A DNA stretch of 64,000 bases from an uncultured bacterium (GTDB lineage: Bacteria > Babelota > Babeliae > Babelales > RVW-14), in the NCBI GenBank assembly GCA_963759805.1, contig CAVXAT010000001.1, positions 256,001 through 320,000 of the forward strand, in the 5' to 3' direction. The position numbers were made by a program, and so were the translations under genes. The notes beneath the pieces were generated by a model. It was not told the DNA's origin, searched no databases, and saw only the letters and a list, made by a program, of their open reading frames with translations. Each line of letters opens with the position of its first letter. Positions within the stretch are counted from its first letter, which is position 1. Below, one piece after another: positions 4,842 through 60,989 of this stretch.

Positions 4842-7094
4842 ATGAATATTTATTTTAGAAAAAACAGAGCATTGATTTCAAAAGTATTGCTGATAATTTT
4901 TGGTGCGAATTTTGGATTATCTTTTTTAGCCGCTGAGACGCAAGCATCTGGGGTACAAACATCCAGCGGGGTACAGACATCAAGCGCTGTGGATAATCGA
5001 CAAACCGTTTATTCGAAAATTTCGGATATGCATATGCCTTCTGTAAAAATGGAGGATTCTAAAGAGCAATCTGAAATGAAAAAAAAACAGGAGGAGAACG
5101 ATAAAGCTTATAATGAGATGCTGACCAATGCAAAGTTTAAAGAGATTAAAATTCCTGCAGTTGGGGATATTGAAAAGCTAAGATTGATATATCAGCTTTT
5201 TCATGGGCGCAGTTTGCAGCTCAATGATGTTATTGGTTGTAGTCGTCCGGTTCTTAATGACAATGTTTTTACCGATTTGCAGATCTACTGTGGTTCGATG
5301 ACCGATTTAAAGCACCATGTTTTTGGGGTTATTGATAATACAGTTACAAGTTTTGGTAAAGTTGAGTTACAACGCTTTTTATATCAAAGGTCTGATTCTG
5401 TTGAACAACTTAAATATGAAATTAAGAATAGGCAGGATATTGTAAAATACCTGGTTGAAAATCCATTTTTGTGCGACAAAATTGAAAAGCAGCTTAAAAT
5501 TGTTAAGCAGGGTGAGACGGATATGCTCTGGTTTTGGAAGGCGTTGGAATTTTCAATCCAAAAATATACTGAGCAGTATTATTTTAAGGGATTTTTGTCC
5601 GGATTAAATGAATCCACAGGGCCTCTTGAACTCCAATCTCTTATGACTACAGTTGTTGCTCCTGCAGACGTAGCTCTTATGGATGCTTTTATGGTAGGAG
5701 TTGGCGCAATTGTGTTGTATAAAGCTTCAAGAGTAGAAAACCTTTGGGCTATGGGTGGGGCAGTTGCCTACTCTGGCCTTTTACTTTTTGGCTCTTATAT
5801 GATGACAAGTATGATTCTTGGATTGGTTCAAACTTTCAATGGCATAACAAATGATATTCAGGATAAGCTGGCAAGTACGGCAAGAATAACGCAAGCTTCT
5901 GCAGCGCTTGCAAAAATTCTAGCTTCTGATGCCAAAATGCCAGTGCTTTGGGATAATTTCAAGAAACTGCAAACAAGTGCGATGCAGGCTCAAGATGGTC
6001 GTGATTTACAAGATCTGTTAAAAAAATTACAGGCAGGAACATTTAAAAGCGAACCTTCATATTTTTCGAACAAAGGGCGAGTGCTGGCGACTTGTAAAAA
6101 GATGTTGCGCTTGAAAGACAATTTTATCAATTCGATTAAGGCCATCGGCGAACTTGATGCATATCTCTCGATTGCAAAGCTCTATTTAAAACATGTAAAC
6201 AATTCTAATGCAAAATACTGCTTTCCTGAAATTATTGAATCAGACAGGCCGTATGTTAATGTAAGCAGAATGTGGCATCCATTTCTTAATCCTGACAAAG
6301 TTGTTACTAATGATATTGAACTTGGACAGGATCAGGCTCAACGAGACTCGTCTCAAAATGTTATTTTGACAGGTCCGAATGCTGCGGGTAAATCAACATT
6401 CTTAAAGGCTTTCACAGTCTCATTAATTTTGGCACAGTCTTTTGGTATAGCTCCTGCCAGTGCAATGAGATTTACCCCATTCATTAAAATCAATACTTAT
6501 TTAAATATATCAGATGAAGAGGGTAGGGAGTCGTTGTTTCAGGCCGAAATGCGACGAGCTCAAGAGCTACTTCGTTCAATCAAGGGGTTGAAAAAAGGTG
6601 AATTTAGCTTTGTTATTATGGATGAAATTTTCACTGGCACAAATCCAAAAGAAGGAACTGCGGGTGCATATGGGGTGGCAAAGAGCGTGTCTAAATATCT
6701 ACAATCAATCTGTATTGTTGCAACACACTTCAAGAAACTTACAGAACTTGAAGAGGATACGAATGGAAGATTTAAGAATTACAAAGTCTATGTAAATAAA
6801 TCTGATACGGGTGATATTGATTATCCTTATAAAGTTGTGCCTGGAATTTCAGATCAAACAATAGCGTTACTGTTATTGGAGAAACAGGGCTTTGATCGAG
6901 AGATTTTGGATGAGGCTTATAAAGCGTTTAATGATGATGAATATGTTCTTGATAGCGTGAAGGGTGAACCTGCTAAACTGGTTCGTGTAGTTGATTTAGG
7001 GGCTGAAGCTGGTGAATATGTTCTTGATAGCGTGAAGGGTGAACCTGCCAAATTGGTTCGTGTAGTTGATTTAGGGGCTGAAGCTGCAGCGTGA
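4842..7094 (+). CDS. MutS-related ATPase (domain V without mismatch-binding domain), with signal peptide, TM hairpin and duplicated C-terminal peptide
   Basis: LTGPNAAGKST, SLFQAEMRR, MDEIFTGT and ATHF motifs; hydrophobic N-terminus and central TM segments; GGGAG RBS before ATG 4842. Confidence 0.88.
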   Translation: MNIYFRKNRALISKVLLIIFGANFGLSFLAAETQASGVQTSSGVQTSSAVDNRQTVYSKISDMHMPSVKMEDSKEQSEMKKKQEENDKAYNEMLTNAKFKEIKIPAVGDIEKLRLIYQLFHGRSLQLNDVIGCSRPVLNDNVFTDLQIYCGSMTDLKHHVFGVIDNTVTSFGKVELQRFLYQRSDSVEQLKYEIKNRQDIVKYLVENPFLCDKIEKQLKIVKQGETDMLWFWKALEFSIQKYTEQYYFKGFLSGLNESTGPLELQSLMTTVVAPADVALMDAFMVGVGAIVLYKASRVENLWAMGGAVAYSGLLLFGSYMMTSMILGLVQTFNGITNDIQDKLASTARITQASAALAKILASDAKMPVLWDNFKKLQTSAMQAQDGRDLQDLLKKLQAGTFKSEPSYFSNKGRVLATCKKMLRLKDNFINSIKAIGELDAYLSIAKLYLKHVNNSNAKYCFPEIIESDRPYVNVSRMWHPFLNPDKVVTNDIELGQDQAQRDSSQNVILTGPNAAGKSTFLKAFTVSLILAQSFGIAPASAMRFTPFIKINTYLNISDEEGRESLFQAEMRRAQELLRSIKGLKKGEFSFVIMDEIFTGTNPKEGTAGAYGVAKSVSKYLQSICIVATHFKKLTELEEDTNGRFKNYKVYVNKSDTGDIDYPYKVVPGISDQTIALLLLEKQGFDREILDEAYKAFNDDEYVLDSVKGEPAKLVRVVDLGAEAGEYVLDSVKGEPAKLVRVVDLGAEAAA
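6939..7088 (+). repeat. Two tandem 75-bp units encoding EYVLDSVKGEPAKLVRVVDLGAEA; third copy at 10011-10091
   Basis: Units start at 6939 and 7014; internal differences are synonymous. Confidence 0.95.
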
Positions 7095-17589: not shown

Positions 17590-18279
17590 ATGAGTTTCTT
17601 AAATTATTTGATCACGGCAGTTATTCTTACTTTTGTAATTGTTGCTTTTGTTATTTATATAAGATCTGACTTTCGTAAAGATGAAAAAATTTCATTGCCG
17701 GCACCAATATTTGATGGAAAAATTTCCGTTGAAAAGGCTATCAAAACAAGGCGTTCAATCAGATCATACAAACAGGATAATCTTACCTTAGCGCAGGTGA
17801 GCCAGTTGCTTTGGGCAGCTCAAGGCATAACTAGTGATGATGGTTTTAGAACAGCCCCATCAGCCGGAGCAACATATCCACTTGAAATTTATCTTGTTGC
17901 AGGCAAGGTTACGGATCTTGCATCCGGAGTTTATAAATATCTAAACAAAGATCATGTACTTGTAAAAATTAGTGATGGAGATAAGCGTGCAGAGTTAAGT
18001 GATGCAGCGCTATCTCAAGAGTGGATTAAAGAGGCGCCAGCTGCAATTGTTGTTTGCGGAATTTATGAGAGAACATCTAAAAAATATGGCGAAAATGCCC
18101 CAAAGTATGTTCATATGGAGGTGGGGTGTGTTGCGCAAAATGTTTACCTGCAAGCTACAGCCATGGGGTTGGGAACGGTCTTTGTAGGTGCGGTTGAAGA
18201 GGGAAAAATTGCTCCCGTTTTGCATCTGGATAAAAATGAACATGCGTTTGGTATTTTGCCTGTGGGGGTTATAAATTAA
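17590..18279 (+). CDS. SagB/ThcOx-type nitroreductase-family protein
   Basis: RRSIRSY, RTAPSAGATYPLEIY and AQNVYLQATAMGLG. Confidence 0.9.
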   Translation: MSFLNYLITAVILTFVIVAFVIYIRSDFRKDEKISLPAPIFDGKISVEKAIKTRRSIRSYKQDNLTLAQVSQLLWAAQGITSDDGFRTAPSAGATYPLEIYLVAGKVTDLASGVYKYLNKDHVLVKISDGDKRAELSDAALSQEWIKEAPAAIVVCGIYERTSKKYGENAPKYVHMEVGCVAQNVYLQATAMGLGTVFVGAVEEGKIAPVLHLDKNEHAFGILPVGVIN

Positions 18280-52646: not shown

Positions 52647-53642
52647 ATGAAAACAATTAGAATTTTGGTCATCACAGCGATGGTTTTACTCAGTTTCTCA
52701 AATTTTGGCATTGCCGGGCATGCAAAAAAGACTAAAACATCAGATGCTGCATCACTGACGGATCTGTCATCCGATGCTGAAACTTTAATTCCAGCGCAGC
52801 AAGCGCTGCAAGATTTTAAATCTTATTTCAATAAACAGATCGCCAAACACAATCTATCACTATCATCCGAACAAATTGACTCGCTTACGGCTAAAAGCCG
52901 CAGCTTAATCTACGAAAGCTCACGCGAAGGCCAGATAAGCCAGGCAAATTCACGCAAGATTCAAAAAGAGTTTAAACTCTACCTCAAAACAGCGTATCCG
53001 GAAAATTTTAAAATCAAACGCTCTCAAAACGAAGTTAATTACAAGCTAGCTCGTCGTAGAATTCGCGCAACAACAAAAGATTTTATCGTAAACAAACTAC
53101 AAATCAAAAATAACACTGAAATAAAAGAACTTTGGGATAAAGTTAAAAGCATGGTCTATAAAAAGCTTGATAAAGCAGCATATTTTAATGATTTTAATGA
53201 GCTGGTTGTTGACGAATCTGCCATTCCGGAGATTATTGGCAAAGTTTTCACCAAGCTTGAAGCTGAGAATCCTAACGATAATAACGGTAATTCCATAAAC
53301 GCCGAGATTCTAAACCGCCACAAGCATACGCACCAACAAGCTACCGCTCCGGAAAAAATCTCTGCCCCAATTGCAGAAAAATTGGTTAGATTAATGATTC
53401 GCAATAAGGGAATCAGCGCAAAGCACAACGACACACTAACTCATAAGATAATGAAAGAAGTAAACAAAAACCTTAAAAGAGGTCGCATATCAAAAGAGTT
53501 TGTTGTGCAGACAACAAAACGAGAAATCGAAGAGTTTATGGAGTTGAAAAGTAATGTCACCAAAAAGGCAACCGGACGATACCTGGATAGATTCATTAAA
53601 GCCATGGGACAGGTACCAGAAACAAACCCAAATGAACCTTGA
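52647..53642 (+). CDS. Hypothetical exported basic protein
   Basis: GGGGAG RBS, signal peptide, helical K-rich body. Confidence 0.75.
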   Translation: MKTIRILVITAMVLLSFSNFGIAGHAKKTKTSDAASLTDLSSDAETLIPAQQALQDFKSYFNKQIAKHNLSLSSEQIDSLTAKSRSLIYESSREGQISQANSRKIQKEFKLYLKTAYPENFKIKRSQNEVNYKLARRRIRATTKDFIVNKLQIKNNTEIKELWDKVKSMVYKKLDKAAYFNDFNELVVDESAIPEIIGKVFTKLEAENPNDNNGNSINAEILNRHKHTHQQATAPEKISAPIAEKLVRLMIRNKGISAKHNDTLTHKIMKEVNKNLKRGRISKEFVVQTTKREIEEFMELKSNVTKKATGRYLDRFIKAMGQVPETNPNEP

Positions 53643-53708: not shown

Positions 53709-53733
53709 AAGGGGCGCATTCGCGCCCCTTTTT
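53709..53733. terminator. Terminator between convergent genes
   Basis: AAGGGGCGC-ATTC-GCGCCCCTT followed by TTT. Confidence 0.8.
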
Positions 53734-53762: not shown

Positions 53763-55001
53763 TTAGTTATTACTTTGTGATGCAAGTGCTTGCTTAAGCT
53801 CATTTACCTTATTTGTCTGTTCCCACGTGAAATCTGGCTCATTCTCTCGTCCAAAGTGTCCGTAGGTCGCCGTTTTTCTGTAGATAGGTCTTTTAAGATT
53901 AAGATATTTAATTATTCCCGCAGGTTTAAGAGGAAAAACCTTTCTGACAGCTTTTTCAATTGCTTCAGAACTTGTTTGTGATGTTCCAAAAGTATTAACA
54001 TAAACCGAAACAGGTTCTGCAACCCCTATGCAGTATGCAATCTGAACTTCGCATCGATCCGCAATACCAGCAGCAACAATATTTTTCGCTACATGTCTTG
54101 CCATATAAGCAGCAGACCTATCAACTTTAGATGGATCTTTTCCAGAGAAGCAACCTCCACCATGTCTGCCCATTCCACCATAAGTATCAACAATAATTTT
54201 TCTTCCTGTTAATCCCGTATCGCCTTGCGGCCCACCAATTGCAAACGATCCTGTTTCATTAACAAAATATCTGGTTTGGGACGTTACATACTTACCGCAT
54301 ATCGGTAAAATTACATTTTTTATTACCTCTTGTTTAATCACATCTTGCAAAACAGCAGGATCATGTTGCGCGGCAATAACTACGGCTGTAACATTGGCAG
54401 GCTTACCGTCTACATATTTGACGGTAACCTGAGTTTTTCCATCCGGACGCAACCATGAAAGTGTCCTGTCTTTTCGTACCTGCGAAAGTTTGAACGCAAG
54501 CTTGTGAGCTAGACTTATTGGCAACGGCATAAGTTCAGGGGTCTCAGTACATGCATAACCAAACATAAGCCCCTGGTCCCCTGCTCCCTGCTCATGTTCT
54601 TTCGTTTCCTTTACCCCCTGTGCAATGTCAGGACTTTGTTTATTAATTGCCGCAATAACAGCACAACTGTCGCAACTCATTCCATAATCCGGATGGGTAT
54701 ATCCGGCGTCACGCAAAACACCCCGAACAACATCCTGCACATTGATTGTTGCAGATGTTGTAATTTCTCCGGTAACTACAACCATGCCAAGGGTAGCAAG
54801 CGTTTCGCACGCAACGTGGGAATCCGGATCTTGTGCAAGTGCAGCATCAAGAACAGCATCTGATATCTGATCACAAATTTTATCAGGATGCCCTTCCGTA
54901 ACTGATTCAGAAGAAAAAAGATAACTGTTTTCTCCATAAATGGGCTGGGAACAAAGAGTTAAAAATAATATTGCACTGCCCAAAAAAGATATTCGCTTCA
55001 T
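53763..55001 (-). CDS. metK: S-adenosylmethionine synthetase with signal-peptide-like N-terminal extension
   Basis: [37 protein letters not shown] and YGHFGR. Confidence 0.97.
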
Positions 55002-55174
55002 TACAAAACTCCTTTTAAAATTAAGAATAAAATTGGGTTGAGAATTGGGTTAAGAAAATGATTTTATATTGTTTGGAAAATAGTGTAAAGATGAAAATCG
55101 CTTCTGTTTTAATTGAGGTAAAAGAGTAGTTTCAAGTTTAAAATTCATAGTTTTTAGCGTTTTTAATCATTTAT

Positions 55175-59434: not shown

Positions 59435-60458
59435 ACCTGAGTTCGACGTTATAAAAAGTTAAGCATGGGCTGGTAAATTAAGCATAAACTTGCTTCGAAG
59501 TGATGGCTTTTTTGGCAAGAAACAATATGCAACAAGTCCGGCAATAAGATTGACAACAAAGTTTGTTGGGCTGCGATGTCGAGAGTGCTCTATTTGACAG
59601 GTTTCTTTGAGTATACAGTTGACTGATTCTATGATTCCACGCTTACTAAGGCCAAGTCTATCTTCCATTTCCATGATTTGAATTTTCATTTTTTTCTTCA
59701 ATTTTGTAATGAGTTTTATGCCTTTTGCAAAAAGCGCGTCAAAGAGCTTCTTTGAAATATATCCTCGATCTCCCCAAAGCTTTCCGAAGCACTTTCGGGC
59801 AAGGTTGGTTACTACAGATGCGTTGTTGTCGGCAACATTACCAGGTGTGAGCATGAAAGATACTATCTCTCCGCACTAATTGATAATCAGATGAAGTTTA
59901 AATCCATAAAACCATCCAGTAGACGTTTTTCCGCGTGCAGCAATTCCAGAAAACACCTTGTTTCTGTTGATTCGCAAATTATGACATACATGAAGCTTTG
60001 TTGAATCGATAAATCCAAAGCCTGTACATTTGTTTTTACAACACAAATTCATAAAAATTGTTAACGGCACAAGAGCCTGCGGAACCAGCTCTATAAAGCG
60101 ATTATAGCTGACGATCCCGTCGAATGCGCCCTTCAAATCGCCACATTCTTTATAATATTTTTTAAAAGTACGATATCCAGAGTGATGAAAATAAATGAGT
60201 ATCGTCAGAATGTCACTGAGAGACATTCTTTTCTGTTCTCTTTTTACCAATGCCGATAAATCTGCAGAAATTGAATGTGCATCTAGATGTGTTTTAAAAT
60301 CTTTACAAAAATTGTCTACGTCATAAAAAATTTGAGTTAAAATCATTTTACTTCCCTTTTTGAAATCCTTTTTTAGATTGGTTTTAACATTCTAAATCTA
60401 TAGAGGATTTGCTTTAAGGGAAGTCCTTTTCAAAGAATTTTAATTGTCGAACTCAGGT
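59435..60458 (-). mobile_element. IS982 family element
   Basis: Terminal IRs ACCTGAGTTCGAC / GTCGAACTCAGGT; 1024 bp; no exact TSD. Confidence 0.92.
59459..60346 (-). pseudogene. IS982 transposase with in-frame TAG
   Basis: FIDST, GWFYGFKLHLIIN*CGEI, WGDRGYIS and KRGIIES in one frame; stop at 59876-59878. Confidence 0.9.
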
Positions 60459-60989
60459 TATATTAATCCGTATCCATTGATTAGAGTACAAAGAACAAAA
60501 GGCTTTCTTGATTCTGATCATTTTGGACCATTTAGGATCCCAGAATTTTTAGGATTGCAATACATGGTAGATCCTCAGTTCTCAGTTTGTACTTACGATC
60601 CATCAAAACCGCTTTCTGATCAACCATTTTATAAACTTAATCAGAACGAAGTTATCAAAAACCGGTTAACCGGCACTCCTATGATTATTCCTGCACATAC
60701 GCCAATGCAGGCTGATACATTTGGCCCCATGACCATTCCTGATGGAAAGTATTGGATGATGGGTGACAGCAGAAATAATAGCGGCGATAGCCGTTACTGG
60801 GGACTGCTTGATGAAAGTTTGATTCACGGACGTGCAAGCTTTATTATTTTATCGATAGATACCTCAGAATCCTTTTGGATCTATGATCTCATAAAACACC
60901 CTATCGATTTTTGGACAAAACACATTCGATGGAACTGTTTCTTCAAAGGATTAGGGAAGTATTACGGAAGACCTGATTTAGAAAATTAA
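60459..60989 (+). pseudogene. lepB: 3' part of signal peptidase I, 5' part missing at the IS boundary
   Basis: YWMMGDSRNNSGDSRYWG (box E); catalytic Ser/Lys boxes and start codon are absent. Confidence 0.85.

Follow-up and report, generated by a model that had tools for sequence, protein, structure and literature searches.

A SAM synthetase with a conserved Sec-type leader and no internal start in Babelota, and its predicted place outside the cytoplasm

S-adenosylmethionine (SAM) synthetase, MetK, is a textbook cytoplasmic enzyme. In the DNA analysed here, a stretch of 64,000 nucleotides from an uncultured member of the Babelota, or Dependentiae (contig CAVXAT010000001.1, positions 256,001 to 320,000; hereafter the window), metK begins with what resembles an export signal, which raises the questions of whether this leader is genuine and where the enzyme would act. 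The open reading frame is located at 53763-55001 on the minus strand and encodes 412 amino acids. An earlier note on this DNA had placed the feature at 54900-55015; this interval spans the ribosome-binding site and the leader, but the gene extends to 53763. Its description of a Sec-type-like leader behind AAGGAG holds. This Shine-Dalgarno (SD) sequence (55009-55014, minus strand), recognised from the sequence, lies 7 nt 5´ of the ATG at 55001, and SD-like sites also precede the leader ATG in most related metK loci. Residues 1-23 (54933-55001, minus strand) form a predicted Sec/SPI signal peptide, judged by a rule of our own, an AlphaFold model and the architecture of related leaders. The rule asks for a positive n-region, an h-region of 7-15 residues and small residues at -3/-1. 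Its criteria were fixed after the metK leader had been seen, and all of these post hoc criteria are satisfied by 6 of 20,000 base shuffles of codons 2-23. The n-region has a charge of +2 (K2, R3), the h-region comprises about 12 residues (approximately F6-C17; best 9-residue hydropathy 2.46), and the c-region reads SQPIYG with P at -4, I at -3 and G at -1. Neither a lipobox nor a twin-arginine motif is found in the leader, which thus has the pattern of neither an SPII lipoprotein nor a Tat substrate. In the AlphaFold model of the precursor, a helix at residues 2-17 is followed by coil and then by the MAT fold.

The leader is not an upstream extension of a gene that could also start in the ordinary way. 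In-frame ATG, GTG or TTG codons 5´ of the core are limited to codon 1 (ATG) and codon 7 (TTG, without an SD), and none occurs within the 15 codons preceding the core. The product has 29 residues ahead of SSESV, and its start does not match the ordinary MetK start position. As the earlier note had stated, the ATG in TATGGA (54937) is out of frame with metK. A promoter scan gave a sigma-70-like candidate, TTTACA-17-TAAAAT (55061-55089, minus strand), in a region where the number of such sites is at chance level (6 against 4.5 +/- 2.2 in shuffles).

Behind the leader lies what appears to be an ordinary enzyme. The product scores 586 bits against TIGR01034 (equivalog cut-off 309) and carries the Pfam domains PF00438, PF02772 and PF02773; the Pfam and TIGR01034 matches begin at residues 27-28, that to TIGR01034 at 28. 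The mature protein would comprise residues 24-412 plus the stop codon (53763-54932, minus strand), with conserved active-site residues. Its modelled core resembles solved bacterial enzymes at 55-58% identity and a predicted TM-score of about 0.8. We take the catalytic and ligand residues of E. coli MetK, in their usual numbering and roles, to be H14, D16, E42, E55, Q98, D118, D163, K165, F230, D238, R244, K245, K265, K269 and D271. The equivalents in the precursor (H38, D40, E66, E79, Q122, D142, D187, K189, F253, D261, R267, K268, K288, K292 and D294) are invariant or more than 90% conserved in 58 sequences, and the catalytic motifs are intact as first read. Judged by sequence, fold and residues, the protein is thus an intact MetK with predicted SAM synthetase activity. 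It shares three MAT domains and the catalytic residues with bacterial MetK (TIGR01034; E. coli 1FUG, 7LOO), and differs in having a 23-residue Sec-type leader and no ordinary start; its departure from the family is in its start and its predicted location. New disulfides in an exported MetK were considered and rejected, the conserved cysteines 113 and 235 being present in leaderless relatives as well.

The leader recurs in related MetKs, as the earlier note had proposed to check. Among 261 Babelota genomes, metK is present in 20, the source genome included, and was not found with this query in the other 241. A clear leader is carried by 15 of the 18 Babelota metK loci with a readable 5´ end. 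The remaining loci comprise one with an eroded leader behind a stop (G226), two leaderless ones (G171 and G172) and two that are cut at the 5´ end. In G060 and G162, an SD and an ATG are found at the ancestral start inside the leader-bearing frame; these two genomes may produce two forms of MetK, which the source-genome gene does not. In a FastTree phylogeny of 200 MetK rows, built on the catalytic core only after 16 duplicate rows had been dropped, every leader falls within one clade of 57 rows (support 99), 44 of which carry a leader (42 by rule and 2 by eye). The other 13 are leaderless as called, and some are visibly clipped; gene callers do clip leaders, P0067 and P0041 being shortened calls of leader-bearing loci. 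No real leader is seen in the 143 rows outside the clade, where each of the two flagged sequences starts at an ATG of its own in the usual position, or in 77 readable metagenome MetKs (of 80 loci), generic MetKs used as controls only, where the three flagged sequences all have a normal ATG. A profile search added 35 MetK homologues, 13 of them with a leader by eye, that of P0252 being lipobox-like.

The clade leaders differ in sequence and preserve their n/h/c architecture. The -3/-1 rule is satisfied by 38 of the 44, often as A-x-A, and most leaders end 2-7 residues 5´ of the YLF that begins ordinary MetK. A comparison of five family-level genomes shows synonymous sites close to saturation (pS 0.5-0.9), with a pN of 0.19-0.57 in the leader versus 0.04-0.16 in the core, which is thus under strong purifying selection; the leader of these relatives is still an open reading frame of equal length. 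A leader that stays open and constant in length despite saturated synonymous sites rules out an assembly indel as its cause, and drift in sequence with preserved architecture is the behaviour expected of a working signal peptide. The presence of a leader without an internal start is thus confirmed as real and conserved. A single origin of the leader is possible. The FastTree support of 99 (57 rows) favours it, but an IQ-TREE analysis of 89 rows grouped 64 of 65 clade rows at a support of only 81, with P0021 unresolved. The closest relatives without a leader bear the names of DPANN archaea and CPR bacteria. Named homologues of metK, and of the EamA gene discussed below, are assigned to Candidatus Dependentiae, Babeliales or TM6; the leader clade also includes an NCBI protein (P0045) that is, by label only, from Chlamydiales. 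Gain of signal peptides among orthologues is described as a known process (PMC5952966).

The gene is an accessory one, missing from most relatives. A family search found no metK in three genomes of the same genus (91-93% complete). In one of these, G002, the two flanking genes are adjacent with no metK between them. A GC-rich, terminator-like hairpin (53709-53730), located between the convergent gene at 52647-53642 and metK, is kept in G002; there, the DNA that follows it immediately matches the window from about 55161 on. The roughly 1.4 kb with metK is therefore either an insertion in the source genome or a deletion in G002. The neighbours of metK differ between Babelota loci, with no conserved gene neighbourhood, and its GC content is 42% compared with 37.8 +/- 3.3% for long ORFs. 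A second metK, which the earlier note had suggested looking for, was not found by tblastn of the 1.50-Mb assembly (88.7% complete), where the gene is single-copy. Elsewhere in the window, a split transposase (DDE_Tnp_1_3) is found beside a 5´-truncated second copy of signal peptidase I (59459-60989).

Published Dependentiae are described as parasites that live inside protists, growing in the host cytoplasm or in a vacuole; they are diderm and have numerous predicted signal peptides (PMC6561590, PMC4378268, PMC4776705). In Chromulinavorax, 44% of coding sequences are reported to have predicted signals (PMC6561590), and the outer membrane in the order of Babela is described as degenerate (PMC4776705). 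Our main reading, to which we assign a probability of about 0.5, is that Sec carries MetK into the periplasm, where the leader is removed after Gly23 and the enzyme uses ATP and methionine from the host to make SAM. Export itself is well supported at the level of predicted features, that is, by a leader whose architecture is conserved, by metK being single-copy and by the secretion machinery encoded, which includes SecY, an intact lepB (C2:74043-75299) and T2SS-like secretin and pseudopilin genes (GspD- and GspG-like, with scores below the equivalog cut-offs). The earlier note went further and had the enzyme exported to the host compartment, on the premise that the periplasm lacks ATP. The export part of that proposal stands. 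The premise need not hold: the genome has about 8 loci of TLC-family nucleotide carriers, and if nucleotides are imported from the host by inner-membrane carriers, host ATP would have to cross the periplasm. With periplasmic ATP plausible, delivery of MetK to the host does not follow, and nothing specific speaks for the suggested alteration of host methylation.

In our model, the precursor would be translocated by Sec and cleaved after Gly23, and the enzyme would fold in the periplasm with K+ and Mg2+ available there. Host ATP would reach this compartment while the cell sits in its host; access is less certain in relatives described as dwelling in vacuoles (PMC4378268). Part of the SAM would serve leader-bearing methyltransferases in the same compartment, and part would be swapped for S-adenosylhomocysteine (SAH) by a carrier and reach leaderless RNA and protein methyltransferases in the cytoplasm. 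Synthesis outside could spare the adenylate pool of the parasite, which an ATP/ADP exchanger would not refill.

Both groups of SAM users are represented in the genome. Four SAM-dependent methyltransferases carry leaders. Proteins that we take from their sequences to be PrmC-, TrmB-, RsmH-, MiaB- and RlmN-like SAM users acting on RNA or protein are all leaderless, which shows that the cytoplasm needs SAM. SahH and Pfs were searched for and not found in the source genome, so SAH must leave the cell. The candidate SAM/SAH antiporter, and putative partner of metK, is the only EamA/DMT transporter of the genome (26966-27874, plus strand), a protein of about 300 amino acids with two EamA domains, unlinked to metK. 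It has relatives in 60 of 61 genomes searched; its named homologues are called only "DMT/EamA family" from Dependentiae, none of them a SAM carrier. A search for a SAM carrier of the mitochondrial-carrier type gave no match in the genome, but a control search was equally blank.

The leader-bearing methyltransferases bear on how much metK matters. One class I family without an NCBIfam name (in the source genome at G000:C1:86703-87644 and C9:21032-22036; L165-L194) is present in 58 of 261 Babelota genomes, with a leader by rule in 32 of 36 hits. Leader-bearing methyltransferases are thus widespread, and host SAM is evidently enough for most lineages; MetK would then be an accessory booster, and relatives without metK must rely on the SAM of their host. 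The distribution of metK speaks against a dedicated partnership, as it co-occurs with neither of the two leader-bearing families tested: the class I family is found in 3 of 20 metK genomes versus 55 of 241 others (p=0.58), and the second family in 1 of 20 versus 2 of 241.

MetK is one case among many in this genome. Of 1249 ORFs with 100 or more amino acids, 312 pass the rule and 427 a looser one. That about a quarter of the ORFs pass the rule speaks against the periplasmic reading. A Pfam scan covered 353 of the 427 loosely flagged ORFs together with 14 window proteins; of those left out, 39 lay outside the regions covered and the rest were filtered as ankyrin- or WD40-like. Leaders precede the domain in envelope proteins, in host-type effectors (UCH, RING, cyclin, ankyrin) and in small-molecule enzymes. 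Among the latter are glycan enzymes, namely Gmd, Fcl, glycosyltransferases of the GT1, GT2 and GT10 types and pyruvyl transferases. A glycan-synthesis island is located at G000:C2:97433-130508 (L121-L123), where most intact enzymes, Gmd and Fcl included, have leaders; leaderless copies of Gmd and Fcl are found on another contig (C8:62415-64828). A leader is also present on a cytidine deaminase (G000:C8:115365-115916) and on an NrdJ-like ribonucleotide reductase (G000:C1:194717-196558), and the only nucleoside diphosphate kinase found (G000:C5:10255-10758) has an N-terminal membrane anchor. A nitroreductase-family protein in the window (17590-18279, plus strand) has an N-terminal hydrophobic segment and a domain that starts at residue 51. 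Apparent leaders on information-processing proteins were dismissed as false hits of the loose rule, produced by an N-terminal domain or an internal start. The exception is a MutS domain III/V protein (window 4842-7094, plus strand), which has a signal-peptide-like N-terminus.

A second step of the methyl cycle is tagged in one relative. SahH is found in 1 of 261 Babelota genomes, G042, where SahH/AhcY (L195:1495-3018, minus strand) has a Sec-type leader and a domain from residue 42 (TIGR00936, 600 bits). In the same genome, MetK has a leader and four homologues of the leader-bearing methyltransferase are present, of which the two checked both carry leaders. Among 50% representatives, several near-full-length SahH matches have alignments that begin close to their own N-terminus but at query residue 37-44. 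NP-I nucleosidase genes (3 of 20 metK genomes, 0 of 20 others) were tried as MTAN and rejected, as they score best as purine/uridine phosphorylases. Two nucleoside-phosphorylase-like proteins, in genomes that both have metK, carry N-terminal signal anchors (L196:1465-2328 in G017 and L198:1426-2277 in G042). One tentative view, to which we give about one chance in three, is that some Dependentiae run a methyl cycle outside the cytoplasm, comprising exported MetK, methyltransferases and, in G042, exported SahH. This cycle would belong to a broader shift in which small-molecule metabolism (nucleotide kinases, GDP-fucose synthesis, glycosyltransferases) has moved to a compartment fuelled by the host, with the enzymes acting on the RNA and protein of the parasite kept inside.

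The leader itself does not fix the destination, since proteins whose site of action must be the host (RING, UCH, cyclin and ankyrin proteins) bear the same type. MetK may accordingly travel onward after Sec, by T2SS or outer-membrane vesicles, and make SAM in the vacuole lumen or the host cytosol, where a raised SAM pool could be imported or used by secreted methyltransferases and could shift host methylation. We regard this as the main rival, though less probable than the periplasmic reading. The T2SS-like genes of the genome and the leader type that MetK shares with the host-acting effectors agree with it. Onward secretion is also favoured by the cofactor needs of leader-bearing Fcl and SahH, as NADP(H) and NAD are most easily obtained in the host cytosol. 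In Babela, no secretion system other than T2SS was found, according to the published description (PMC4378268), vesicles were seen in Chromulinavorax (PMC6561590), and the glycogen enzymes secreted by Chlamydia offer a precedent (PMC6717882). However, the host has its own MAT, which makes the gain unclear, MetK has no eukaryote-like targeting domain, and the lipobox-like leader of P0252 points to membrane tethering. Near the predicted cleavage site, a small residue with Met directly after it is seen in 78 of 312 leader-bearing ORFs versus 79 of 822 others; among effector-like proteins the count is 16 of 43, versus 3 of 27 for enzymes (p=0.026), in hand-picked sets of which the effector set includes some doubtful members. 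The motif may mark a class of secreted proteins; its lack in MetK would count slightly against onward secretion and points weakly to the periplasm.

A less probable alternative, which we rate at well below even the onward route, is that MetK folds fast and stays wholly or partly in the cytoplasm, the leader serving dual location or as a membrane tether. The cytoplasmic SAM users agree with this, as do the second start sites in G060 and G162 and the leaderless genes of G171 and G172. The only adenylate kinase found (G000:C6:3979-4764) combines a lipoprotein-like leader with an internal Met at the start of the domain and lends further support. Against it, the source metK has no such internal start, and positive n-region charge, a short h-region and the -3/-1 site persist from family to family despite drift. 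An h-region of about 12 residues is short for an anchor, and an N-in topology would still place the enzyme outside. It is quite improbable that MetK is carried along almost neutrally, or has a moonlighting role without catalysis, in a lineage where leaders are readily gained and SAM comes from the host: the gene is lacking in most genomes searched with this query and at the syntenic site of G002, and its neighbours differ between loci, but the core is under strong purifying selection and the catalytic residues are invariant in the leader clade. The earlier note's caveat of a read-level indel, in which the TATGGA ATG (7 codons ahead of the core and beside a T6 run) would be the true start and a base would be missing from the T run before SSESV, can practically be dismissed, as this ATG has no SD and independent homologues (P0002 at 88%; L002, L003) keep the leader and E-x-x-YLF in frame.

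Export of MetK to the periplasm, our preferred reading, has partial parallels in other intracellular bacteria. The SAM/SAH antiporter SAMHT (CTL0843) of Chlamydia and the rickettsial SAM carrier RP076 are described as proteins with two EamA domains (PMC3104491); they are the two bacterial SAM carriers known, and our EamA gene is likened to them by family and domain count rather than by direct sequence comparison. As in these scavenging systems, no SAH catabolism is found, a two-EamA carrier is present and metK is missing from most of the lineage. Unlike them, metK is kept here in export-tagged form, and synthesis would lie outside the carrier. Chlamydia trachomatis is reported to secrete the glycogen enzymes GlgA and GlgB and to use host UDP-glucose (PMC6717882), which likewise places a usually cytoplasmic biosynthetic enzyme outside the cell with a host nucleotide substrate, as predicted for MetK. 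These enzymes carry a type III signal, whereas the Sec-type leader of MetK belongs to a different pathway and may lead to more than one final compartment. A further parallel is the Sec/T2SS secretome of Dependentiae, in the same lineage and with the same leader type; the main texts of the papers on it (PMC6561590, PMC4378268, PMC4776705) name hydrolases, ankyrin proteins and ORFans, and hold no mention of SAM synthesis or methionine, although their supplements may list MetK. No description of a MetK with a signal peptide was found in the open-access literature.

In conclusion, the leader-bearing MetK is apparently an undescribed variant of the enzyme and one case of a lineage-wide pattern. If our reading is true, an intracellular parasite produces its methyl donor beyond its own membrane and at the expense of host ATP, which would be a third option beside internal SAM synthesis and plain scavenging. 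MetK would offer a simple and assayable test case for ATP-dependent metabolism of Dependentiae in the periplasm or the host.
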